Source of the DNA: Pusillimonas sp.
Lineage (GTDB): Bacteria; Pseudomonadota; Gammaproteobacteria; Burkholderiales; Burkholderiaceae_B
Reading direction: 5' to 3'
Length of the DNA stretch: 64,000 nt
NCBI GenBank assembly: GCA_049672825.1
Contig: JBATWU010000032.1
Location: 7,794 to 71,793 of the forward strand
A model generated the notes under the pieces. That model searched no databases, was not told where the DNA came from, and saw only the letters and a program-made list of their open reading frames with translations. The number at the start of each line of letters is the position of its first letter. Position 1 is the first letter of the stretch. This document shows positions 36,944-51,862 of this stretch, one piece after another. The translations under genes were made by a program, and so were the position numbers.

Positions 36944-37154
36944 TGTCCAGCCTAAAGGCGCCTTGTTGGGGCGACGACAGAATGTCGAGTACGACTTCCG
37001 ATGGCCGACATAGACGTACGCCAAGCCCTGTAATCACGAACGGACGATTAATCAGGATCGGATGAGCCAACATGGCATCCAATAACTGATCATCTGTCAG
37101 GTCGAGGTTATCCAGGCCGAGCTGCGCATAGGGCGTACCCTTGTGTACCCTCAT
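36891..37154 (-). pseudogene. arsC: Truncated glutaredoxin-type arsenate reductase (R773 ArsC family) lacking the catalytic N-terminus
   Basis: The 87-aa ORF aligns with about residues 60-122 of E. coli ArsC: GTPYAQLGL...LTDDQLLDAMLAHPILINRPFVITGLGVRLCRPSEVVLDIL. The N-terminal ~55 aa with the HNPxCGTS catalytic Cys are absent. Its ATG overlaps the acr3 stop (ATGA). The last ~20 aa are non-homologous and run antisense into the AraC gene, 36891-36943. Confidence 0.7.
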
Positions 37155-38221
37155 CCTGCTTTGGCTTCATACCAGCCCTTTGAGCGATTTACGACGCGAA
37201 CCACGACCAGCATAATCGGCACCTCGATGAGCACGCCGACTACCGTGGCGAGCGCCGCACCCGATTGAAAACCGAACAGGCTGATCGCGGTAGCTACCGC
37301 CAGTTCGAAGAAATTGCTGGCGCCGATCAGGGCGGACGGCCCCGCCACACAATGGGCCACGCCGAACCGGCGATTCAGGTAATAGGCCAGGCCCGAGTTC
37401 AGTACGACCTGAATCAGAATCGGGATGGCCAGCAATAGGATAATCAGCGGCTTGTCAATGATGGCATTGCCCTGGAAGCCGAACAGCAGCACGAGCGTTG
37501 CCAGAAGCGCAGCAATGGAATAGGGACCTAATGCGCCGACGACGCGCCGATAGGTGGCTTCGCCCTTGGCAAGTAATGCCTTGCGTATGGCCTGCGCGAT
37601 GAGGACCGGGACAATGATGTACAGCGCCACGGAGGTGATAAGCGTATCCCATGGCACCGAGATCGAAGATAGCCCCAGCAGCAGCGCAACGACAGGCGCA
37701 AACGCCACGATCATGATGGCGTCGTTCAGCGCGACTTGCGATAGCGTGAAATACGGATCACCTTTGCAGAGCTGCGACCAGACAAAGACCATCGCGGTGC
37801 AGGGCGCGGCAGCCAGCAGAATTAACCCGGCCACATAACTGTCGAGCTGGTCCGCAGGCAGCCATGCCGCAAACAGATGCCGCACGAATAGCCAGGCCAG
37901 CAGCGCCATGGAAAAGGGTTTGACGAGCCAGTTTATGAATAGCGTTACGCCAATGCCGCGCCAGTGGCTTGTCACTTGCCCCATCGCGCCGAAATCAATC
38001 TTGATCAGCATGGGAACGATCATGACCCAGATCAGCAGACCCACCGGCAGATTGACTTGTGCCACCTCCAGCGCCGCGATGCCTTGAAACACGCCTGGCA
38101 TCGACTGGCCCAACAAAATGCCCGCAACGATACATAGAGCCACCCAAACGGTAAGATAGCGCTCAAAGAAACCAATGCCCCCACCCTGCGAAACGGCGGC
38201 CGCTTGTGCCACTGACTTCAT
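37151..38221 (-). CDS. acr3: ACR3-family arsenite efflux permease
   Basis: 356-aa ORF, about 10 TM. N-terminal block GFFERYLTVWVALCIVAGILLG and APCTAMVFVWS motif. Confidence 0.95.
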   Translation of the reverse strand: MKSVAQAAAVSQGGGIGFFERYLTVWVALCIVAGILLGQSMPGVFQGIAALEVAQVNLPVGLLIWVMIVPMLIKIDFGAMGQVTSHWRGIGVTLFINWLVKPFSMALLAWLFVRHLFAAWLPADQLDSYVAGLILLAAAPCTAMVFVWSQLCKGDPYFTLSQVALNDAIMIVAFAPVVALLLGLSSISVPWDTLITSVALYIIVPVLIAQAIRKALLAKGEATYRRVVGALGPYSIAALLATLVLLFGFQGNAIIDKPLIILLLAIPILIQVVLNSGLAYYLNRRFGVAHCVAGPSALIGASNFFELAVATAISLFGFQSGAALATVVGVLIEVPIMLVVVRVVNRSKGWYEAKAG

Positions 38222-38730
38222 TCTTGGGATTCCAAGGGCTGTTGACCGATCGCCCGCATTTGCGTTTGAATGGCGTTGCGATCCAGGATATGAAGCGGCA
38301 GGTTCTCAAACTGGCTGACGCGAGCCATGATTTGCCGGAAAACTTTGTTGAAAAGCGCACGCTTTTCCTCATCGCTACCCTCGAACGCGGCAGGGTCTTG
38401 AAACCCCCAGTGCGCCGTGATGGGCTTGCCTGGCCATACAGGGCAGGTTTCGCCCGCCGCTTGATCGCAAACCGTCAGGACAAAATCCATTTGGGGCGCA
38501 TCGGGCGCGGCAAACTCATCCCAGCCTTTGCTGCGCAGGGCGGAGGCGTCGTAGCCAATCGCCTCGCATCGCTCCACTGCGAAGGGGTTCACCTTGCCCG
38601 TTGGTTGGCTGCCAGCGCTATAGGCGCGAAAGCGCCCTTTGCCCAGCACATTGAAAAGCGCTTCGGCCATGATGCTTCGCGCTGAATTGCCAGTGCAAAG
38701 CACCAGCACATTGAAAGTTTTATCAGACAT
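38218..38730 (-). CDS. arsC: Arsenate reductase, LMW-PTPase (thioredoxin-coupled) type
   Basis: P-loop VLCTGNSARS at the N-terminus. 170 aa. 4-nt overlap with acr3. Confidence 0.9.
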   Translation of the reverse strand: MSDKTFNVLVLCTGNSARSIMAEALFNVLGKGRFRAYSAGSQPTGKVNPFAVERCEAIGYDASALRSKGWDEFAAPDAPQMDFVLTVCDQAAGETCPVWPGKPITAHWGFQDPAAFEGSDEEKRALFNKVFRQIMARVSQFENLPLHILDRNAIQTQMRAIGQQPLESQE

Positions 38731-38775
38731 GACGGGTTATCAGCTTGAGGTCGAAAGGGTGTGGGTTAATCGGGC

Positions 38776-39273
38776 TTAGCAACAAGACGGTTCGGGCTTA
38801 CTGCATGCATTTTCTGCTTTGGGCGGCGTAGCAAAAGAGTTTGGCTTGGAGGTGCAGCACGCGCTATCTGCGTCTAATGCCTGGCGGGATTGGCCATAGG
38901 TTGCTGCGCTTTCCAGCGTATGGAATGATTCCCAGGCAACACCCTGGGGGTCGATGGACCAGTACTTATCAGACTTGGCGTAGCAGCAGGTTGTATTGTT
39001 TTGCTGCTCCACAGGCAGGCTCGCGCTTGCCAGTCGCGCTTGAATTTCCGCCAGCTCGGCATCGTTCTCGACTTGAATGCCAAGGTGGTCCACACCCAGC
39101 TTGGCAGGCGCTGTACCCAGGGATGAAATGGCAAAATTCACCCGTGGATCTTCAAGCGCCCATTTTGCATAGTCTGATTTGACGATAGTGGGCTCTGCTG
39201 CAAATAACGCCGAGTAGTAGCGGATGCTGGCGGGCAGATCGGCTACGGCGACATGGACATGAAAGCGTTTCAT
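38776..39273 (-). CDS. arsI: ArsI/CadI-family glyoxalase-fold metalloenzyme (candidate C-As lyase)
   Basis: 165 aa. His5, His63 and Glu115 sit at the positions of the ArsI Fe(II) triad. The vicinal pair Cys96-Cys97 (TTCCYAK) sits at the ArsI substrate-binding position. Cys-rich C-terminal tail. Confidence 0.8.
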   Translation of the reverse strand: MKRFHVHVAVADLPASIRYYSALFAAEPTIVKSDYAKWALEDPRVNFAISSLGTAPAKLGVDHLGIQVENDAELAEIQARLASASLPVEQQNNTTCCYAKSDKYWSIDPQGVAWESFHTLESAATYGQSRQALDADSACCTSKPNSFATPPKAENACSKPEPSCC

Positions 39274-40185: not shown

Positions 40186-40237
40186 GAGTGCCTCCTGCCA
40201 ATGATTATCATTGCCATCCCTTCAATCATTAATGGTA

Positions 40238-40252
40238 TGTTATAACATAACA
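40238..40252. promoter_or_regulatory. Zur box (zinc uptake regulator operator)
   Basis: TGTTATAACATAACA is an exact match to the TGTTAT-N3-ATAACA palindrome reported for beta/gamma-proteobacterial Zur (recalled as TGTTATDNHATAACA). It lies in the divergent intergenic region upstream of the first COG0523 gene. Confidence 0.7.
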
Positions 40253-40449
40253 TTTAAAGGCTGGGAAACCCATGTGAACTACGAGATAAGACCATGAACG
40301 TCTGACAAATGGCCGCGCATTCGAATTTCGCCGCGCGGTCATTGAAGTGCATGGCAAATGCTCCAGTTGCTGTGCGATTGAACGGGGCGGTCAATGCTGA
40401 TGCGGCTGGGCGCCAACAGTTTTTTTCTTATGACTTTAGATACCGAGCG

Positions 40450-41679
40450 ATGAACCTACCTACTTTTCAACCTGACTCTCGATTGCCCGTCACTGTCCTC
40501 TCCGGTTTTCTCGGCGCAGGCAAAACCACGCTGCTCAACCACATTCTGAACAACCGCGAGGGACGGCGCGTGGCGGTCATCGTCAACGACATGTCCGAGG
40601 TCAATATCGACGCCGCGCTGGTGCGCGAGGGCGGAGCCGAACTGTCCCGCACCGACGAGAAGCTGGTCGAAATGAGCAACGGCTGCATCTGCTGCACCTT
40701 GCGCGAAGACCTGCTGCTTGAAGTGGACCGTCTGGCCAAGGAGGGCCGATTCGACCAGCTCGTCATCGAATCCACCGGCATTTCCGAACCCTTGCCGGTC
40801 GCCGAAACTTTCACCTTCGAGGGAGAAGACGGCCGCAGCCTGGCCGAGGTGGCTCGCCTGGACACCATGGTGACGGTGGTCGATGCCTACAACTTCTTGC
40901 GCGACTACGGTTCGCGTGACAGCCTGCAAGCGCGCGGCGAATCCATGGGCGAAGAAGACGAGCGCACCGTGGTGGATCTGCTGATCGAACAGATCGAGTT
41001 TTGCGACGTCCTTGTGCTCAACAAGGTGGATTTGATCGACGAGCAAGCGCGTGAACGGTTGATGGCAATTCTGCGCACGCTGAACCCCAGGGCGTGCATC
41101 GAGGTGGCCGAGTTCGGCAAGGTGCCGCTGGATCGCGTGCTGGACACGGGCCTGTTCGATTTCCAGGAAGCGTCCAAGGCGCCCGGATGGCTGCAGGAAC
41201 TGCGCGGCAACCATACGCCCGAGACCGAGGAATACGGTATTCGCAGCTTCGTCTACCGCGCGCGCCGACCATTTCATCCGCAACGCTTCCATGACTATGT
41301 CGCAAGCGAATTGCCGGGCGTGGTGCGTTCCAAGGGCTTTTACTGGCTGGCAAGCCATCCGACACTGGCCGGCTCCTGGTCGCAGGCCGGCGCCATTGTT
41401 CGGCATGGCCCGGCAGGCTACTGGTGGGCGGCCATGCCGCCGGAGCGCTGGCCGCAGGACCCGGAAACTGTCCGTCTGATCCGCGAAAAATGGGACGACC
41501 GTGTGGGTGACGCGCGCCAGGAGCTGGTGCTGATCGGCATGGATATGGACGAGCGCGCGCTGCGCGCGCACTTCGATGCCTGTCTGCTGACCGAGGGGGA
41601 AATGGCCGTCGGTCCGGAGGTCTGGCAGCAGTGGCACACCCCCTTCGAACAGTGGCCCGAACGTCAACCCGCATTCTGA
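40450..41679 (+). CDS. COG0523-family G3E GTPase (ZigA/YeiR/CobW-like zinc metallochaperone)
   Basis: Start at [33 protein letters not shown] (Walker A); an upstream alternative is ATG 40309. CxCC motif GCICCTL. CobW C-terminal domain. Confidence 0.9.
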
Positions 41680-41692
41680 GTCATTCCCAAGC

Positions 41693-42190
41693 ATGATGGC
41701 ATCTTCGCAACCGCAACTGGATATTGATCAAGACGCGATCCAGACTGAGCTGGTTCAGGCCTTCGCTTGCCTGCCCGATTGGCCGCAGCGCTACCAGTAC
41801 CTGATCGATCTGGGCAGGACGCTGCAGGGGTTTGCGCAAGCGTATCGGATCGACCGATACAAGCTGCGTGGCTGCCAAGCCAGTGTCTGGCTGAAGCCTG
41901 AGTGGCGGGATGGCCGCATTTACTTCACCGGCACAAGCGACTCCCTCATCGTTGCGGGCTTGATGGCGCTCTTGTTTCGTCTCTATTCCGGCAGAACTTT
42001 TTCTGACGTGTTGACGGCCTCCCCCTGGTGTCTCAAAGAAATGGGGCTGCATCATCATTTATCGCCTCAGCGGGCGACGGGCCTGGCCGGCATGGTCGAG
42101 CGCATGCGTGAATTCGCCGTGCAATGCAGCCGGCCGGCATCTATCAACACTATGGATACACCCAGCAGGTTGGGGCACGCCGCCAACTGA
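41693..42190 (+). CDS. sufE: SufE-family sulfur acceptor protein
   Basis: Blocks LPDWPQRYQYLIDLG and the conserved Cys context KLRGCQASVWL. Confidence 0.85.
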   Translation: MMASSQPQLDIDQDAIQTELVQAFACLPDWPQRYQYLIDLGRTLQGFAQAYRIDRYKLRGCQASVWLKPEWRDGRIYFTGTSDSLIVAGLMALLFRLYSGRTFSDVLTASPWCLKEMGLHHHLSPQRATGLAGMVERMREFAVQCSRPASINTMDTPSRLGHAAN

Positions 42191-42303
42191 TCGAGCATAA
42201 ATTGGATACCGTACTTACCGACCTTCCCGATGCTTCAATCGCGCATAGCCAGCGCAGCGAAGCCTGCGTCGCCGTGACGCTGGCGTCTCAGGCACCGACC
42301 CGC

Positions 42304-43444
42304 ATGAACCATCCTGCCTCCACTCTCATACCCGTTACGCTGCTCACCGGCTTTCTGGGCAGCGGCAAGACCACAGTGCTCAACCACCTGGTACGCCAGA
42401 CCGAATTGGCCGACGCGTTGGTCATCATCAATGAGTTCGGTGAAATCTCCCTGGACCACCTGCTGTTCACCCATAGTGCCGAAAACCTTGTCATGGAAAT
42501 GAGTAGCGGCTGCCTGTGCTGCACCATCCGGGGAGATTTGGTCAAGACGCTATCGGACATGACTTGGCGCTTCTCGCGTAACGGACAGCGCCAGTTCAAC
42601 CGCGTGGTGATCGAAACCACGGGCCTGGCCGACCCGGCCCCAATCGTTCACACGCTGATGACCCACCCGCAGGTGGTCAACCGATACCGCCTGGACGGCA
42701 TCGTGACAACCCTTGATCTGGCCACCGGCAACGCCACCCTGAACCGCCACGTAGAAGCCGTGCGCCAGGCCGCGATCGCCGATTGCCTGCTGCTCACCAA
42801 AGCAGACATGGTGGACACCGAGACGCGCGATGCGTTCCTGCGCCGGCTCGACGCCATCAACCCGGCCGCGTCGCGCTGGGAGGTGCGCCACGGCGAAATC
42901 GCGGCGACCAAGGTGCTGGATCTTGGACTGTTCTCGACCGAGGGCAAGGCGCCCGACGTCGAGCGCTGGCTGCGCGAGGAAGCATACGCGGACGACACGC
43001 ATCGCCATGATAAGGAAGTCGGCCATGCCCATGCCCACCATCATGAGGATGAGCATCATCGTGACCATGACGGCCATGGTCACGAGGCCCATCGCCACGA
43101 TGTCAATCGCCACGACGATCACATCCGCGCATTCTGCTTCGCAGTGGACGAACCAATTCCCGAAGACCTGTTGGCCGCCTGGCTGGAGGTGCTGATGAGT
43201 TTCGTCGGAGAGAACATCCTGCGCGTCAAGGGTATCCTGAACATCGAGGGGAGCGACCAGCCGGTGGTCATCCACGGTGTGCAGCATATTTTTCATCCAC
43301 CCGCGACACTCCCGGCGCTGGCCCAGCGCGGATCGGCGCTCGCGGCTGGTGTTCATCACCCGGGATGTGAGCCGTCAAAATATCGAAGACACCTTCCGGG
43401 CCTTTCGCGATGTCTTGCCCCAGCTGCGGGAGGCGGCCGCATGA
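42304..43444 (+). pseudogene. Second COG0523 GTPase with His-rich insert; apparent 1-nt frameshift near 43318
   Basis: Start at MNHPASTLIPVTLLTGFLGSGKTTVLNHLV. CxCC motif GCLCCTI. His-rich stretch HRHDKEVGHAHAHHHEDEHHRDHDGHGHEAHRHDVNRHDDH. After ...FHPPATLP the canonical C-terminus (R)[42 protein letters not shown]-stop is encoded in the +1 frame, with TGA at 43442-43444. The as-written frame instead reads through into cysS, giving the 910-aa ORF 42124-44856. Confidence 0.7.
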
Positions 43445-44856
43445 TGCCCGCCATCCATTTGTACAACACCTTGACGCGAAGCAAGGAGTCGCTGCGCACC
43501 ACAAGCCCGGATCACGTCACGATGTACGTGTGCGGCCCGACCGTCTACAACTACGCGCATCTGGGCAACGCGCGGCCGGCCGTGGTCTTCGACGTGCTCG
43601 CCCGACTGCTGCGTCACGTCTACCCGCATGTCACCTATGCGCGCAACTTCACCGACGTGGACGACAAGATCAACGCGGCAGCGGCGGCGGCAGACGTGCC
43701 CATCGGCGCAATCACGGCACGCTACATCGACGCTTACCACGAAGACATGCACGCCTTGGGCGTGCTGGCGCCGGATCTGGCGCCCCGCGTCACCGAGCAC
43801 ATACCGGCCATCATCGATCTCATCCGCATCTTGATCGCACGCGGGCACGCCTATGAAGCCCAAGGGCATGTGCTGTTCGACGTAGCCTCTTTTCCGGAAT
43901 ATGGGCGCCTGTCCGGGCGCAGGCCCCAGGACATGATGGCCGGTGCGCGCGTGGAAGTCGCGCCCTACAAGCGCAATCCCCTGGATTTTGTATTGTGGAA
44001 GCCGTCCACGCCTGAGCTGCCTGGGTGGGACAGCCCCTGGGGACGCGGGCGCCCCGGCTGGCACATCGAATGCACGGCCATGATCGGCCAGCACCTGGGC
44101 CAGACGCTCGACATTCATGGCGGAGGCCAGGACCTGATCTTCCCGCACCACGAAAACGAAATCGCTCAGGGTACGTGCGCCCACGGCGTCCTGTACTGCC
44201 GTACCTGGGTTCACAACAGCTTTGTCACCGTCGATGGACAGAAGATGTCCAAATCACTGGGCAATGTATTGCTAGTCCGCGATTTGTTAAAACTTGCGCC
44301 CGGCGAGGCCATACGGCTTGCGCTGTTGTCTTCGCACTACCGCCACCCCTTGGATTGGACCGACGAACGGCTGACTAATGCGTGCCGCACTTTGGTTCGT
44401 TTTTACCGCGCGCTTGAAAAGACAGCGCACATCGAGGCCGCTGAGGGCGTAGGGCCTGATGAGGAAGTGTTCGCTGCATTGGCCAATGACATCAATACAC
44501 CGGCGGCACTTGCTCGGCTGCACCAGTTAGCGAGCGAGCTGGAGCGGGCGTCGTCCGATAACGTGCGCATGAACCTGAAGGCTCGCCTGCTCTACTCCGC
44601 CCGCTTGCTCGGCTTGCTGCAGGCCGATGCTGCGCGCGCGGTCGCCGACCTGCAGGGCTATCAAGCCTTGCCCACGTCGGACGTCATCGATGCCGCCTGG
44701 GTAGAGCAGTTAATTGAGCAGCGCACACAGGCCCGCGCGCATAATGATTTTGCCCGCGCCGATGTCCTGAAGAGGCAGTTGGAAGATGCCGGAATCACAG
44801 TGCAGGACTCAACCGAGGGCACCACTTGGCGAGTCGGAATGGAGGCCGTCTTATGA
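43441..44856 (+). CDS. cysS: Cysteinyl-tRNA synthetase
   Basis: Starts [19 protein letters not shown]-type motif [10 protein letters not shown]. Zn-ligand contexts [18 protein letters not shown] and [18 protein letters not shown] are retained. KMSKS motif is present. The ATG overlaps the +1-frame stop of the COG0523 gene (ATGA). Confidence 0.9.
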
Positions 44857-45192: not shown

Positions 45193-45339
45193 ATGAAAGT
45201 TCTCTCCTCTTTGAAAGACGCCAAAACGCGCCACCGCGATTGCCAGGTCGTGCGCCGCCGCGGCCGTATCTACATCATCTGCAAGTCCAATCCGCGTTTC
45301 AAGGCCCGCCAGGGCGGCGCCAAAAACAGGAACGCCTGA
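45193..45339 (+). CDS. rpmJ: Ribosomal protein L36, C-minus (YkgO/type B, zinc-independent) paralogue
   Basis: This 48-aa ORF is not in the ORF track: [48 protein letters not shown]. It closely resembles E. coli YkgO ([41 protein letters not shown]...). AAAGGAG lies upstream. Confidence 0.9.
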
Positions 45340-46460
45340 TGCACCGCCTGGATGTCGCCATCGTCGGTGCTGGTGCTGCCGGGATCGGCATGGCCCTGGC
45401 GCTGCAGAAAGTACCGGGGCTGAAGTACGGCGTACTGGAGGCCGGGCGCGTCGGCGAGTCGTTCCGGCGCTGGCCGGCGCAGACCCGCTTTATCACGCCG
45501 TCCTTTCACAGCAACCCCTTCGGCCTGGCTGACCTGAATGCCGTGAACGAGCCCAGCTCGCCGGCGATTCACGCGGGCGCCGAGCATCTGAGCGGCCCCC
45601 AATACGCCGAGTACCTGGCCTTCATCGCCAAGGGTCATGAGCTACCTATCGCCAGCGATTGCAAGGTGGAAGCGGTGGCGGCGGTGACAGGTGGCGGCTT
45701 CATCCTGGATACCTCGAAGGGCAGGCTGCAGGCGGGTTTCTTGGCCTGGGCGACGGGCGAGTACCAGTTTCCCGATCTGGCTCCTTTCCCGGGGGCCCAA
45801 TGGTGCGCGCACTACGCCCAAGTCGCCGATTGGGCGGCCTTCAAGGCCCGCCGCTATACCGTGATCGGCGGCTACGAGAGCGGCGTGGACGCGGCGGTCA
45901 ACTTGGTCAAGCTCGGGCGCAAGGTACGCCTACTTGCGCGCAAGTCCACGTGGGATCCGCAAGGCCCGCACGACCCGAGTCTGTCGCTCTCACCCTACAC
46001 CCGGCAGCGGCTCTACGAGGCGGTCGATACCGGCAGGCTGGAGATTCTGTTCGGGGTCGACGTGATCGGGGTGACGCAGAACGAAGGCGGTGTTTTCCGT
46101 ATCCACGCAGGCGATGGCCGGTATTGGGACGAGAAACAGGCGCCGATCCTGGGAACGGGATTCGTCAAAGGCGGCGGTGCCCAGCAGATCGCCGAACTCT
46201 GGGGCTGGGACGAGGATGGCCGCGTAATGCTGTCCGAAGCCGACGAATCGACCATCACCCCGGGCCTCTTCCTGGTCGGTCCGCAGGTACGCCACGATAA
46301 GCGCATCTACTGCTTTATCTATAAGTTCCGCCAGCGCTTCGGCTTGATCGCGGACAGCATCGGCCAGTGCCTGGATCGGGACACGAGCGCATTGAAAACC
46401 GGCGCCGGCGCCTGGGGGCCCTTCGGCAACAGCGAATGCTGCGAGGGCTGCGAATGCTGA
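45339..46460 (+). CDS. FAD/NAD(P)-binding pyridine-nucleotide-disulfide-type oxidoreductase with Cys-rich C-terminal tail
   Basis: Start at [22 protein letters not shown] (GxGxxG), sharing one base with the rpmJ stop (TGATG). A second dinucleotide fold lies at YTVIGGYESGVDAA. The C-terminus is ...NSECCEGCEC. Confidence 0.8.
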   Translation: MHRLDVAIVGAGAAGIGMALALQKVPGLKYGVLEAGRVGESFRRWPAQTRFITPSFHSNPFGLADLNAVNEPSSPAIHAGAEHLSGPQYAEYLAFIAKGHELPIASDCKVEAVAAVTGGGFILDTSKGRLQAGFLAWATGEYQFPDLAPFPGAQWCAHYAQVADWAAFKARRYTVIGGYESGVDAAVNLVKLGRKVRLLARKSTWDPQGPHDPSLSLSPYTRQRLYEAVDTGRLEILFGVDVIGVTQNEGGVFRIHAGDGRYWDEKQAPILGTGFVKGGGAQQIAELWGWDEDGRVMLSEADESTITPGLFLVGPQVRHDKRIYCFIYKFRQRFGLIADSIGQCLDRDTSALKTGAGAWGPFGNSECCEGCEC

Positions 46461-47515
46461 CCGTCCTCAAGAACATTGTCCGACCATCGTGGGTTTCCGT
46501 ACTGCTGGTCGCCAGCATTCTCGGCGGTGCGGTCGTGGGCCACCAGTGGCCGGTGGCGGGCGAGGCGCTGCGCGATTACGTGGACGGCACTCTGCTGGCG
46601 CTGGTCGTGCTGCTTTTCTTCGGCGTGCGCTTCGAGGCCGTCGTGCGCGCCTGGAGCAACTTGCGCTTTCTGGGTCTGGCCCTGCTTGCCACTTACCTTT
46701 TTGTTCCCGTCATCAGCTACGCCATTGCCTCGGTCGCGTTGTCGGCATACCCCCTGTTCATGGTCGGGCTGGTGATCTACTTCATGTCGCCCTGCACGGA
46801 CTGGTTCCTGGGTTTCACGCGACTGGCGGGCGGCAACGTGGCCCTGGGCACGGCCCTCATCCCGATCAATATGATGGTGCAGCTTCTGCTGTATCCGGTC
46901 TATCTCTATCTTTTCACGCGCAGTGCCGTTCCTATCCAGGCCGACGTCATCGGCAGCACGCTGCTGCACTGGTTTCTCGTGCCGTTCGCCGTGGGGGTGG
47001 CGGCCCATTACCTCCTGCGCCGCCTGCTGGCCGCCGAACGGTTCGATCGTCTGCTGCGCTGGGTCGACCTGGCAACACCCTGGGTCATCGCACTGCTGGT
47101 GGTGGAGATCTTCGCCGGCAACATCGCCGTCATCCTCCAGCACAGCGCCGTGTTCGGCTGGGTACTGCTGGCGGTATTCGTCTTCTTCGTCGCCACCTTT
47201 TTGCTCGGCGAGGCGATGAGCCGCCTGGGCCGGCTCGCCTATCCCGAACACGCCCTGCTGACCATGACCGTCGCGGCCCGCAACGCCCCGTTGATGCTCG
47301 CCGTGACCATGGTCGCGTTGCCGAATCAGCCGCTGGTGTATGCCGCCATCGTCATCGGCATGCTGGTGGAGTTTCCCCATCTCACGCTATTGCAGCGGGT
47401 GCTGCTTGGCCGGCGCGGCCAACACGAGCACGTCGACTCGCCTGGCTCAATACCAACCCCGCATGCCATGGCGTCAAACGAGCCGCCACGCAATTTACCC
47501 TCAAAGAACCCATGA
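46454..47515 (+). CDS. Multi-TM permease of the ACR3/bile-acid:sodium symporter (SBF-like) superfamily, substrate unknown
   Basis: Start at MLTVLKNIV overlaps the upstream stop (ATGCTGA). About 10 hydrophobic segments. The block FMSPCTDWFLGFTRLAGGN resembles the ACR3 APCTAMV region. Confidence 0.7.
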   Translation: MLTVLKNIVRPSWVSVLLVASILGGAVVGHQWPVAGEALRDYVDGTLLALVVLLFFGVRFEAVVRAWSNLRFLGLALLATYLFVPVISYAIASVALSAYPLFMVGLVIYFMSPCTDWFLGFTRLAGGNVALGTALIPINMMVQLLLYPVYLYLFTRSAVPIQADVIGSTLLHWFLVPFAVGVAAHYLLRRLLAAERFDRLLRWVDLATPWVIALLVVEIFAGNIAVILQHSAVFGWVLLAVFVFFVATFLLGEAMSRLGRLAYPEHALLTMTVAARNAPLMLAVTMVALPNQPLVYAAIVIGMLVEFPHLTLLQRVLLGRRGQHEHVDSPGSIPTPHAMASNEPPRNLPSKNP

Positions 47516-47757
47516 TCCGTAAGAATCCCCGCGGCGACCCGACGGACCTGGCCAGCTTTCCCCGCACCTCGGCCGACGCTAGCGAATTCTCCGAAGACGT
47601 GGCGCGCACCAACAACAGTCTGGTGCTGGGATACAAGACTATCCAAAACGAACTCCGAGCCGCCATGAACGACATCGCTCCCGATACGCTCGTAGCCCAG
47701 CCGTTCGACGGCACGGGGATAGGTGGTTTATTCGATGAAGTCATTCACGATGCTTAA
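47512..47757 (+). CDS. Hypothetical 81-aa acidic protein, translationally coupled on both sides
   Basis: [85 protein letters not shown] overlap with the permease stop. Its own stop lies 8 nt inside the next gene. No family recognised. Confidence 0.4.
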   Translation: MIRKNPRGDPTDLASFPRTSADASEFSEDVARTNNSLVLGYKTIQNELRAAMNDIAPDTLVAQPFDGTGIGGLFDEVIHDA

Positions 47758-49165
47758 CGACCTGGACATTGCCGATCGGCTGGGCCGCCGCCATGCCGAT
47801 CTTTGCGTGACGGGCGCCACCGTCATGACGCCCAGCGGTCGCACGATGTGCGATGTGGTCTGCCTGGCTGGTCGCATCGTGGCGCTGGACGCCACCGGGT
47901 GGACCGCAGACACCACTCTCGATGCGGCGGGCCTGCATGTGCTGCCCGGAGTGATCGACAGCCAGGTTCACTTCCGCGAGCCCGGACTCACGCACAAAGA
48001 AACCTTCGAGGCGGGTACGCGCGGCGCGGCGCTGGGCGGCGTGACCGGTGTTTTCGAGATGCCCAACACGAATCCGCTGACGCTGACGGTTGACGACTTG
48101 CAGGCCAAGCTCGACCGCGCCCAAGGCTGCGCCTGGTGCGACTACGCCTTCTACATCGGCGGCTCGGCGGTGAACGCGGAGCAGCTCGCCGAGCTGGAGC
48201 GGCTGCCCGGCTGCGCGGGCGTCAAGGTCTTCATGGGCAGTTCTTTCGGCGATCTCCTGGCCGACGACGAAGACGTGCTGCGCCGGATCGTGCGCCATGG
48301 CCGCCGCCGCATGGCGGTGCACGCCGAGGATGAGGCCCGGCTGCGCGAGCGCAAGATTTTGGTGCAGGAAAGCGGCGACGTGCGCGACCATCCCGCCTGG
48401 CGCGATGTAACCAGTGCCCTGGCGGCCACCCAGCGCATCGTTCGCCTGGCGGCCGAGGTGGACCGCCGGCTGCACATCCTGCACGTCTCCTCGGCAGAGG
48501 AAATGGCCTTCCTGGCGGCGCACAAGCACCGCGTCAGCGTGGAGGCCACGCCGCACCACCTGACCCTGGCCGCACCGGACTGCTATGAGCGCCTGGGCAG
48601 CTTTGCCCAGATGAATCCGCCGGTGCGGGAGCCGCACCACCGCGAAGCCCTATGGCAGGCGGTGCGAGACGGCGTGGTGGACGTGCTGGGCAGCGACCAT
48701 GCGCCGCACACCTTGCAGGAAAAGGCGCAGCCTTATCCGCAGTCGCCCAGCGGCATGACCGGCGTGCAGACCTTGGTGCCGATCATGCTCGATCATGTGC
48801 ATGCGGGCCGGCTCAGCCTGGAACGGCTGGTGGATCTCACCAGCGCAGGGCCGGCCCGCATCTTCGGCCTGGCGGGCAAGGGGCGCATTGCGCTCGGCTA
48901 CGACGCCGACCTGACGCTGGTCGATCTGAAGGCCCGCCGAGAGATTACCAACCGCTGGATTGCCAGCGTGGCGGGCTGGACACCTTACGACGGCGTACGA
49001 GTGACAGGATGGCCGATAGCCTCCGTGGTGCGCGGTCATGTCGTAGTGCGGGATGAAACCTTGGCCGGACAACCGTTGGGCGGCCCCCTTGCATTCCTGG
49101 AGGCGGCGTCGCCCCAGGGCCACGGGTCTTTACAAGGGCCGGCCGGAACCGGGGGAACATCATGA
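47750..49165 (+). CDS. Dihydroorotase/allantoinase-like cyclic amidohydrolase paralogue
   Basis: Start at [11 protein letters not shown]. Motifs: [13 protein letters not shown] (canonical D-x-H-x-H with Gln in place of the first His), [29 protein letters not shown] and GSDHAPH. Confidence 0.85.
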
Positions 49166-49329
49166 ACGATAGCGGCGAATTGAAACGCGCGGGGCTGAAA
49201 GCGACGCTACCGCAGCTGCGGATATTGGACCTGTTCGAGGAAACGGACCAGCGACACCTGTCGGCAGAGGATGGTTATCGTCTTCTGCTGGATAAGAACG
49301 TGGAGAGTGCGAGCATTGGCACCTCATGA
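49162..49329 (+). pseudogene. Fur-family regulator, N-terminal 55-aa fragment only
   Basis: This ORF is not in the ORF track: [55 protein letters not shown]-stop. It aligns with E. coli Fur residues ~8-55 (LKKAGLKVTLPRLKILEVLQEPDNHHVSAEDLYKRLID). The recognition helix, dimerisation domain and metal sites are missing. ATGA overlap with the upstream stop. Confidence 0.6.
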
Positions 49330-49354
49330 CACCATTGACGACAAGGAGGTCAGC

Positions 49355-49891
49355 ATGACCACTCAAACCGATACCCCTTCGCCCGCCGATAGTGTGGCCG
49401 GGCACGATACTACGACGGCTGTGCGTTTTGCCGCTAGGACTTCGGTCGAACAAGTTGAAGAAGGTACCGCACTGGCACCCAAGTTCGACCGCGACGGGCT
49501 CATCCCCTGCGTGACCACCGATGCCGATACCGGGGAGGTGCTGATGTTGGGCTACATGAACGCCGAAGCCCTACACATGACGATCGAAACCGGTGCGGCG
49601 CATTATTGGAGCCGGTCACGCCAGACGGTGTGGCACAAAGGCGCCACCAGTGGGCTGGTGCAGGCGGTCGAGGAATTGCGCATTGACGACGACCAGGATG
49701 CCGTCTGGCTGCGCGCGCGGGTGGCCGGCTCGGGCGCAAGCTGCCATGTGGGGTATCGGTCCTGCTTCTATCGGCGCGTTCCGATCGGAAACGAACGCAC
49801 GCAAGGCGATGCGCTGGTCTTCAGGGAAGCCGACAAAAAATTTGACCCTAAACAGGTCTACGGCGATGCGCCAAATCCCACTATTCTGTGA
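49355..49891 (+). CDS. hisI: Phosphoribosyl-AMP cyclohydrolase (HisI) paralogue
   Basis: ATG follows AAGGAGG. PRA-CH core [80 protein letters not shown]. The canonical DCDxD reads DDDQD here. Confidence 0.9.
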
Positions 49892-50024: not shown

Positions 50025-50228
50025 ATGACCTATGATCCCAATAACATCTTTGCCAAGATTCTACGCGGTGAAGCGGCTGGCCAGACCGTACCGCATTGTC
50101 ACTTCCACGTCATCCCGAGAGGACCGGACACGATGTTCCGTGACCATGCGGCTGTTCCTGCTCAACCAGAGGCGCTAGAAATAGTCGCCGAGCGAATTCG
50201 GGCCTGCCTACAGGCCGATACTGCGTGA
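50025..50228 (+). pseudogene. HIT-family (histidine triad) gene with large internal in-frame deletion
   Basis: The 67-aa ORF MTYDPNNIFAKILRGE|AAGQTVPHCHFHVIPR... joins the HIT N-terminus directly to the HxHxH motif region. About 70 residues of the expected core are absent. Confidence 0.6.
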
Positions 50229-50668: not shown

Positions 50669-51862
50669 TCACATGTCGTTCGTCGATTCGCTACCACGCT
50701 TGATTCTCCGTACTTCTAATTCCCGTCGTGTTTTGTCCAGCTCCTCGGCCAGCAGCTTTTCATCCGGCAGCGCCGTCCGGTATTCAGCTGTCAGCACTTT
50801 GTTGGATAAACCCTCCAGCGTATAGTGGGCCTCGTTGCTGCCTTTGCCTGCACACAGGATCAGCCCTATAGGTGGGTTTTCGCCAGGTTTCATCCAATGT
50901 GTTCGTGCGTAATTCAGGTACATGTGCATTTGACCGGCATCGGCGTAACTAAACTGGCCGACTTTGAGATCAATAACCAGCAAACATTTCAAACTGCGGT
51001 GAAAGAACAAGAGGTCGATACGAAACCAACTATCGTCCAGGCGCAGGCGCCGCTGACGGCCGACAAAGGCAAAATCGTCTCCTAGCTCCAATAAGAAGTC
51101 GGCTAAATGCTGGATCAGTGCCTCTTCAAGGTCGGACTCAGAATACTCGTCCTTGAGATTGAGAAACTCCAGCACGAACGGGTCTTTAATTGCCTGTTCG
51201 GGCGTGATGACATCACCAGGTGCGGCTACCTCACCCTTTTCCAGCATCGCAGTCTTGTTGTGCGATAGGGCGGTGCGCTCGTAAAACTGGCTGTTCACTT
51301 GCCGGTCGAGCTGGCGCACTGACCAACCGCAACGTAGCGTCTCGGTTTCGTAGAAAGCACGGGCCTGTGGATTCTTGACCGAGAGTAGGCGCACGTAGGC
51401 TGACCATGGCAGCGGGAAAGCCTTGGCTAGAGAGGCGAGGTCGATGGAATTCCGAGTCGCCGTTCCGGAATTTCTAGCAGGTACAGAATTGCCGGAAATT
51501 GCCTGGCGAATTAGAGGAAGCGTGAATTGCGCAGACACTGTCTGCGCAATCTGGTCAGTTGGCCAAGCTAGATAAAACAGTCGCATTTGTTCGAGGTTTC
51601 GCTTGGAAAAACCACGACCAAAGCGAGCACTCAAGTCGGTTGCCAGCCGCACCATCAAGGCCTCGCCGTAGTGGGCCCGTTCCTGCCCGCCCTGTTCGAA
51701 TTCCACAATACGACGACCAATTTCCCAATAGCTGGCGGTCATTAACGAATTGACGCTACGTGCGGCGGCACCGCGGGCGGAATCCAGCAGCGTGACGATG
51801 TCGGTGTGGACTGCTGCGTAAGCGGCCTGATTAGACACGGCGGGCGTGCTGTGGTCGTTCAT
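50669..51862 (-). CDS. DUF1016/YhcG-family PD-(D/E)XK nuclease-fold protein
   Basis: 397-aa ORF. N-terminal helical region: YWEIGRRIVEFEQGGQERAHYGEALMVRLATDLSARFGRGFSKRNLEQMRLFY. C-terminal nuclease core: IDLLFFHRSLKCLLVIDLKVGQFSYADAGQMHMYLNY. Confidence 0.85.
   Translation of the reverse strand: MNDHSTPAVSNQAAYAAVHTDIVTLLDSARGAAARSVNSLMTASYWEIGRRIVEFEQGGQERAHYGEALMVRLATDLSARFGRGFSKRNLEQMRLFYLAWPTDQIAQTVSAQFTLPLIRQAISGNSVPARNSGTATRNSIDLASLAKAFPLPWSAYVRLLSVKNPQARAFYETETLRCGWSVRQLDRQVNSQFYERTALSHNKTAMLEKGEVAAPGDVITPEQAIKDPFVLEFLNLKDEYSESDLEEALIQHLADFLLELGDDFAFVGRQRRLRLDDSWFRIDLLFFHRSLKCLLVIDLKVGQFSYADAGQMHMYLNYARTHWMKPGENPPIGLILCAGKGSNEAHYTLEGLSNKVLTAEYRTALPDEKLLAEELDKTRRELEVRRIKRGSESTNDM

Follow-up and report, generated by a model that had tools for sequence, protein, structure and literature searches.

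The DNA analysed here, called the window in the following, is a stretch of 64,000 nucleotides from contig JBATWU010000032.1 of Pusillimonas sp. (assembly GCA_049672825.1), a member of the Burkholderiales. Its draft genome comprises 191 contigs with a total of 4.29 Mb, and the closest named homologues belong to Pollutimonas, Castellaniella and Bordetella. The DNA apparently stems from a sediment metagenome. From 40.2 to 49.9 kb, the window carries a co-directional gene cluster on the plus strand comprising zigA, a sufE-like gene, a cobW-like gene, cysS2, a flavoprotein gene, a transporter gene, pyrC2, a Fur-family remnant and hisI2, with pyrC2 and hisI2 as the final two intact genes (Table 1). 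PyrC2 is a dihydroorotase (DHOase) and HisI2 a phosphoribosyl-AMP (PR-AMP) cyclohydrolase, and the genome encodes a housekeeping form of each elsewhere. Both paralogues show a substitution of one metal ligand, namely glutamine for histidine in PyrC2 and aspartate for cysteine in HisI2. The latter marks an enzyme subtype that is large, widespread and apparently undescribed. The rebuilding of the bacterial metalloproteome in zinc starvation, infection included, is studied mainly with Zur-regulated paralogues as the model, which makes the nature of these two sites of general relevance.

The metal site of HisI2

The codon GAC at 49688-49690 encodes Asp112, the middle aspartate of the motif RIDDDQD in HisI2. 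In the alignment to the enzyme of M. thermautotrophicus (1ZPS), the block iDDDqD faces vDCDgD, and the housekeeping HisI of the same genome, encoded in the order hisA-hisF-hisI-hisE, reads LDCDGD. The ligand roles were taken from Witek et al. 2021 (PMC8102479). According to that work, the catalytic zinc of MtHISN2 is bound by the thiols of Cys126, Cys142 and Cys149, which correspond to Cys86, Cys102 and Cys109 of M. thermautotrophicus, while a Mg-type site is formed by Asp125, Asp127 and Asp129 (archaeal Asp85, Asp87 and Asp89). Alignment and ligand assignment together bear out the original prediction, made from the letters of the window, that the middle aspartate replaces a zinc-ligand cysteine and that the cysteines of the downstream CH and SCF motifs are kept. 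Hence, the three-cysteine catalytic zinc site is incomplete in HisI2, with Asp112 in place of the first cysteine and with C130 (49742-49744, CH) and C137 (49763-49765, SCF) retained, as are D111, D113, D115 and H131.

Across 34 aligned sequences, the aspartate triad of the Mg site (D111, D113, D115) and the general base H131 were invariant. The residues invariant in both the canonical and the aspartate-bearing group comprise R87, R89, K95, G96, S99, G100, D111, D113, D115, C130, H131, C137 and F138. Compared to canonical HisI, only three columns were specific to the aspartate clade: C112D, A129S directly before the second cysteine, and T132V directly after the histidine. All three lie in or beside the metal site. 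Since a harder ligand has taken the place of the thiolate and the second-shell residues co-vary tightly with it, the site of HisI2 appears to be retuned, for which a weaker or more exchangeable zinc, a chaperone-assisted loading or another metal may be the basis. Besides these columns, a C-terminal (D/G)xPNPTxL tail was present in 120 of 120 close homologues of HisI2 and in none of 40 canonical sequences; in HisI2 itself it reads PNPTIL.

Two further candidates were discarded. The cysteine next to the block (IDDDQDC) was considered as a replacement ligand, but position 116 is alanine in 113 of 120 close homologues and cysteine in one. The other candidate was the replacement of glutamate by alanine in KGE(S/T)SG as a second marker of the clade, but alanine reaches only 40% in the aspartate clade.

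The AlphaFold2 model of HisI2 showed a predicted local distance difference test (pLDDT) value of 91.2, and its top Foldseek matches were 1ZPS (root-mean-square deviation 1.4 A over 118 columns), 7BGM/7BGN and 6J2L. Accordingly modelled, the beta-grasp-type HisI fold is predicted to be intact. The model is a monomer and is uninformative on the metal site, because this site spans the interface between the subunits of the dimer. Altogether, HisI2 shares with canonical HisI (1ZPS with 52% identity; MtHISN2, 7BGM; HisIE of S. flexneri, 6J2L) the fold, the Mg triad, the general base in CH, the second and third cysteine, and the SRSR and WxKGxxSG motifs, whereas it differs in the aspartate at 1ZPS Cys86 (MtHISN2 Cys126), the A-to-S and T-to-V exchanges and the PNPTxL tail.

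In the literature, the metal-site residues of PR-AMP cyclohydrolase are described as universally conserved (PMC8102479), and Haas et al. 2009 (PMC2770081) stated that the zinc-binding residues of the HisI paralogue are conserved. Judged by the present alignments, the latter statement does not hold for the HisI2 clade, the Pseudomonas proteins included. The hisI2 gene of Pseudomonas protegens is induced by zinc limitation, and the HisI2 proteins of P. protegens Pf-5 and the paralogue of the 2009 report resemble the one described here in being monofunctional, in belonging to zinc-limitation regulons and in lying beside COG0523 and pyrC2 genes. In those accounts, however, they are listed just for their induction or co-localisation, whereas here the aspartate ligand was found throughout the clade. 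Literature searches, with subscription journals outside their scope, returned no description of the cysteine-to-aspartate change in HisI2. This half of the finding therefore corrects the 2009 statement on the zinc site of the HisI paralogue and qualifies the universal conservation of the three cysteines.

Distribution of the aspartate-type HisI

The DDD block was found in 120 of 120 of the best HisI2 homologues (67-99% identity), which belong to Beta- and Gammaproteobacteria, among them Pseudomonas (74-83% identity), Burkholderia, Marinobacter and Comamonas. With representatives clustered at 50% identity, the top 150 matches comprised 63 sequences with DDD and 62 with DCD. Furthermore, aspartate was present in all 80 hisI2 loci taken from species-representative genomes of Alpha-, Beta- and Gammaproteobacteria, Planctomycetota, Verrucomicrobiota, Cyanobacteria and Bacteroidota. 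These loci were chosen by similarity to HisI2, and their neighbouring genes were found by tblastn with the proteins of the window. In a quick maximum-likelihood tree, all 30 DDD sequences fell into one clade with a Shimodaira-Hasegawa-like approximate likelihood ratio test (SH-aLRT) value of 96, and the HisI2 type is shown by this tree to have a single origin.

One sequence inside the DDD clade, the metagenomic P0253 (158 aa), is the sole one with DCD. It reads IDCDQD and could represent either an intermediate or a reversion. Since it lacks both the aspartate and the PNPTxL tail, it suggests that these two features go together.

The surroundings of hisI2 point to zinc limitation in part of the loci. 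Within 8 kb, a COG0523 gene was found in 24/80 loci, a CysRS paralogue in 22/80 (often divergent and adjacent) and PyrC2 in 8/80. Palindromes of the ATGTTATAACAT type, which is also the type of the operator in the window, lie 25-115 nt 5' of hisI2 in seven loci (L024, L026, L040, L042, L045, L050 and L060), and boxes of the cyanobacterial type TGATAAT-N-ATTATCA lie upstream of it in two (L085 and L090). Genes for HisA, HisF and HisE were not found near hisI2 in any of the 80 loci.

Fifteen genomes were reached via HisI2 loci. Seven of them encode a canonical HisI together with HisI2, and of these hisI2 genes six have a COG0523 gene nearby and the seventh a Zur-like box. In the other eight, HisI2 is the only match to PF01502, and none of these loci contains COG0523 within 8 kb. 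The gene hisD was present in 5/5 of the HisI2-only genomes tested. Several of the HisI2-only genomes are metagenome-assembled and of unknown completeness; among the eight are also an isolate, Sinimarinibacterium thermocellulolyticum, and a Limisphaerales chromosome that is complete. As the sample is small and contains related and metagenome-assembled genomes, these numbers describe a pattern and are not a statistic. Nonetheless, since HisI2 occurs as the sole HisI together with hisD and as a second copy beside zinc-limitation genes, it is predicted to be a competent, working subtype of PR-AMP cyclohydrolase, used full-time in some lineages and recruited into zinc regulons as a second copy for zinc limitation in others, and not a decayed duplicate. 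Given its use as a full-time enzyme in several phyla, HisI2 would be better regarded as an alternative isoform than as a spare for emergencies, a change of view already seen for FolE2. Indeed, FolE2 (GCYH-IB) and QueD2 are likewise isoforms with a changed metal site that serve as housekeeping enzymes in some lineages and as Zur-regulated second copies in others. However, FolE2 is a structurally distinct enzyme for which the use of other metals has been demonstrated, while HisI2 is closely homologous and has a single altered ligand.

On the Limisphaerales chromosome (OZ244865; L108, ~1450-1720), a decayed canonical hisI was observed 3' of hisF. It reads LDRDGDAF…ACHGELRSCL and its mid-domain is missing. 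The HisI2-type gene, situated at another place of this chromosome, is the only intact one for a PR-AMP cyclohydrolase there, and the three-cysteine enzyme has apparently been displaced by the aspartate type.

The same distribution could be explained in another way, in which the glutamine of PyrC2 and the aspartate of HisI2 are neutral ancestral marks of old subtypes that normally use zinc, and in which Zur regulons took up copies of them for dosage or for loading by COG0523 proteins, without any advantage in zinc. An idea based on copy number was already offered by Haas et al. 2009 (PMC2770081). This explanation gains from the eight genomes with HisI2 as sole HisI and no COG0523 gene close by, from the two retained cysteines, and from the patchy occurrence of HisI2 in 2/41 relatives, 0/5 genomes of the same genus and 4/401 sampled genomes of the phylum, a distribution indicative of horizontal transfer. 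Against it, the second copy in a zinc context beside a canonical HisI is of the aspartate type in 7/7 sampled cases, and the sole columns specific to the clade cluster at the metal site. A Zur-linked canonical duplicate was found in none of the 80 loci, which is weak evidence because the loci were selected by similarity to HisI2. On balance, we consider neutral marks the main alternative, but the less likely explanation.

PyrC2 and a common explanation for both enzymes

The open reading frame of pyrC2 extends from 47723 or 47735 to 49165, with ATG 47735 as the probable start. The codon CAG at 47963-47965 places a glutamine at the first histidine of the D-x-H-x-H motif. In HMMER alignments, this glutamine faces the first histidine of HxH in the B. 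anthracis DHOase 3MPG (vdvHvHlrepg) and a glutamine in the P. gingivalis DHOase 2GWN, the best solved relative (E 1.5e-70). The position is thus a true metal-ligand position, as had been predicted, and the remaining ligand contexts, aligned to both structures, were likewise found intact: VKVFMG with the bridging lysine, VHAEDE, HILHVSS and SDHAPH. Among the best 120 homologues, D(S/T)QVH, K[VIL]F[ML] and SDH[AS]PH were each present in 120/120. The class II housekeeping PyrC of the same genome (contig C187) carries the canonical histidine (DDWHLHLRDG), so that the comparison with housekeeping copies proposed in the original prediction gave a canonical residue for both enzymes. A third amidohydrolase of the genome has the motif DTHVH and is encoded beside an ABC transporter and a regulator of the IclR type.

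The PyrC2 substitution and the idea of a retuned metal site are not new, because both have been published. The review in Chem Rev 2024 (PMC11672702, sect. 4.3.2) describes the loss of the site-1 histidine to glutamine in PyrC2, notes the same glutamine in 2GWN and suggests that the exchange may relax the metal preference or alter the affinity. Haas et al. 2009 (PMC2770081) reported a Zur-linked PyrC paralogue that is active although the conserved zinc residues are absent, and the PyrC2 of P. aeruginosa is reported in the literature as an active DHOase that complements pyrC. The latter protein (PA5541; Brichta 2004, Haas 2009) is alike in its assignment to NF006559, in ~77% identity between PyrC2 and a P. 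aeruginosa entry and in the sequence D-S-Q-V-H. Compared to the Zur-regulated PyrC2 proteins of P. aeruginosa and others, which share the Zur/COG0523 neighbourhood, nothing of substance differs except for the operon partners, which are cysS2, the flavoprotein gene, the transporter gene and hisI2 here and folE2 and cam elsewhere. The P. gingivalis enzyme 2GWN has the glutamine block, the carboxylated-lysine context and the remaining His/Asp ligands in common with PyrC2, but it is a housekeeping DHOase and not a Zur-regulated second copy. For PyrC2, the present data therefore make no addition to the published account.

A metagenomic protein of 647 aa (P0199) comprises a PyrC2-type DHOase and a HisI2-type cyclohydrolase in one polypeptide. 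Since it originates from a 3-kb metagenomic contig, it is either a genuine fusion or a read-through artefact.

Taken together, PyrC2 and HisI2 are probably competent isozymes of zinc enzymes, each with one first-shell ligand changed, in a zinc-starvation cluster. The cluster, located behind a Zur-type operator, would presumably be de-repressed at low zinc. PyrC2 would then supply a class III-type dihydroorotase with glutamine for the first histidine of the alpha-metal site, and HisI2 a cyclohydrolase whose water-activating metal site would be Cys2-Asp instead of Cys3, with the aspartate triad of the Mg site, the general-base histidine and the substrate motifs untouched. A harder oxygen donor in place of a soft thiolate or imidazole would be expected to lower the zinc affinity or to make the site more exchangeable, and a preference relaxed towards Fe(II), Mn(II) or Co(II) would be expected as well. 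In consequence, the synthesis of histidine and pyrimidines could continue while the housekeeping enzymes are under-metallated. A change of metal affinity or identity in both proteins is what we infer from the ligand exchanges. A more far-reaching version can be put forward only tentatively. In this version, HisI2 would be a zinc-independent or multi-metal enzyme using Fe(II), Mn(II), Co(II) or a far looser zinc; it would serve as the usual HisI in the lineages Planctomycetota, Verrucomicrobiota, Nevskiales and Ferrovibrio, and Proteobacteria and Cyanobacteria would have received it repeatedly by transfer into their Zur regulons, as a zinc-sparing replacement for the three-cysteine enzyme.

Several points weigh against the explanation by competent isozymes with a retuned site. 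The invariance of the two remaining cysteines of HisI2 makes it probable that the protein binds a thiophilic metal, which may still be zinc. The structure 2GWN, with the same glutamine as PyrC2, is depicted with Zn ions in the site (PMC11672702), which also favours the view of the glutamine as a neutral mark. In other lineages, both variant types serve as housekeeping enzymes, so that their substitutions may have arisen for reasons other than zinc sparing. Finally, the sole Zur-like box in the window is located 7.4 kb upstream of pyrC2, and co-transcription is assumed across several gaps of 100-480 nt.

Accordingly, the original prediction of zinc-frugal or alternative-metal isozymes rather than simple duplicates holds in one part. 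The altered ligands are invariant in their clades and distinguish both proteins from the housekeeping copies, whereas zinc frugality or zinc independence does not follow for PyrC2, since its glutamine-bearing relative is drawn with Zn. The outcome is similarly divided for the question whether housekeeping orthologues share the residues, which had been named as speaking against the proposal. The copies of the same genome are canonical, but the sole enzymes of other lineages carry both variants. Neither substitution is special to Zur-linked paralogues; each marks an older subtype which, in other lineages, is the only form of the enzyme and has the housekeeping role, with the class III DHOase in P. 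gingivalis and the HisI2-type enzyme in the eight genomes mentioned above as examples.

A loss of the original activity in one or both proteins, which would then act as metal buffers, regulators or enzymes for other substrates, was also considered. A precedent exists in Pseudomonas, where an inactive PyrC' scaffolds ATCase. One ligand of the catalytic metal is missing in each protein, HisI2 carries extra N- and C-terminal segments, and his genes were never found beside hisI2 in the 80 loci. On the other hand, no other catalytic or substrate-binding residue varies, HisI2 is the sole PR-AMP cyclohydrolase in genomes that encode hisD, the PyrC2 of P. aeruginosa is reported as active and complementing, and the NCBIfam equivalog cut-offs were exceeded by a wide margin. 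This makes a non-enzymatic role very improbable. For HisI, the occurrence of Cys3 and Cys2-Asp forms in one genome offers a clean natural experiment on a single residue, by which the gain from the back-up copy is directly testable.

Operator and neighbouring genes of the cluster

The coordinates of the operator and of the genes in the cluster are compiled in Table 1.

Table 1. Features of the zinc-limitation cluster in the window, with the evidence for each assignment.
Feature	Coordinates	Strand	Evidence
Zur-box-like operator TTAATGGTATGTTATAACATAACATTTA	40229..40256	none	holds perfect 12-nt palindrome
zigA, COG0523 zinc metallochaperone GTPase	40309..41679	+	NF038288 ZigA, 695.7 bits (cut-off 600)
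Putative SufE-like small protein, between zigA and cobW-like gene	41693..42190	+	translation contains RGCQASVWL
Second COG0523 (cobW-like) gene, His-rich loop	42304..43444	+	PF02492 and partial PF07683
cysS2, CysRS paralogue	43441..44856	+	TIGR00435, 482.5 bits (cut-off 340)
Pyr_redox_3 flavoprotein, Cys-rich C-terminal tail CCEGCEC	45339..46460	+	PF13738, 301.8 bits
SBF/ACR3-like membrane transporter, start uncertain	46367..47515	+	PF01758, 74.3 bits
pyrC2, class III-like dihydroorotase	47735..49165	+	NF006559, 723.7 bits (cut-off 482)
Fur-family remnant, 55 codons, N-terminal DNA-binding part only	49162..49329	+	PF01475, positions 2-44 of 121
hisI2, PR-AMP cyclohydrolase	49355..49891	+	PF01502, 102.5 bits (cut-off 27); NF000768, 155.8 bits (cut-off 126)

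The perfect palindrome ATGTTATAACAT at 40237-40248 is embedded in a longer AT-rich palindrome ~60 nt 5' of zigA. It represents the single match in the window at up to 2 mismatches, and no further Zur boxes were found within the cluster at this threshold. Since at least one match occurred in 59/100 shuffles, one match alone is not significant, and the weight of the operator lies in its position and in the recurrence of the motif 5' of hisI2 in other genomes. With these two observations, the transcription unit is headed by a putative Zur operator, and the Zur operon setting assumed in the original prediction is upheld to the extent that a co-directional cluster lies behind a perfect Zur-type palindrome. 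The gene order suggests co-transcription of pyrC2 and hisI2 from the zigA promoter, and the cluster as a whole is probably regulated by Zur. The start of hisI2 is most likely ATG 49355, six bases past AAGGAGG, and not 49271.

The product of the gene following zigA is presumably SufE-like, as judged by its motif. In the subsequent cobW-like gene, a 1-nt frameshift near 43312-43319 fuses the reading frame to cysS2, resulting in one ORF of 910 aa (42124-44856). The +1 frame encodes the true C-terminus of the cobW-like protein (RWPSADRRSRLVFITRDV...AAA*), with a terminal TGA that overlaps the ATG of cysS2. Base 43317 is missing in contigs of related strains from two insect-metagenome runs and is kept at a depth of ~25 in the probable source run.

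In the alignment of CysRS2 to the E. coli enzyme (1LI5), all four zinc-ligand contexts were retained, including myvCgptvy and gwhieCtam, which confirms what had been predicted for this protein. The four contexts correspond to C28, C209, H234 and E238 of E. coli. Due to the frameshift in the cobW-like gene, the case for a dependence of CysRS2 on this adjacent chaperone is weakened in this strain. The housekeeping cysS is located on contig C138 of the same genome.

Three other loci (L022, L040 and L097) likewise carry a homologue of the flavoprotein close to hisI2, one of them along with the transporter. At the position of the Fur-family remnant, a relative that also carries HisI2 (G006; L011, ~1023-1481) has a full-length fur paralogue between pyrC2 and hisI2 with both CxxC-type pairs. 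This paralogue is nearer to Fur (56% identity) than to the weaker Fur-family match of the genome on contig C11.

Directly downstream of hisI2, a 67-codon ORF (50025-50228) resembles a collapsed HIT-family gene, in which the HIT N-terminus NIFAKILRGE is joined straight to the histidine-triad motif HCHFHVIPR. Upstream of the operator region, the minus strand carries an arsenic-resistance-like set at 37151-39273, comprising an SBF/ACR3-type transporter, a low-molecular-weight phosphatase/ArsC-like protein and a glyoxalase-fold protein. Beyond 52 kb, past a YhcG/DUF1016 nuclease gene (50669-51862), the G+C content falls from ~0.60 to 0.51-0.54.

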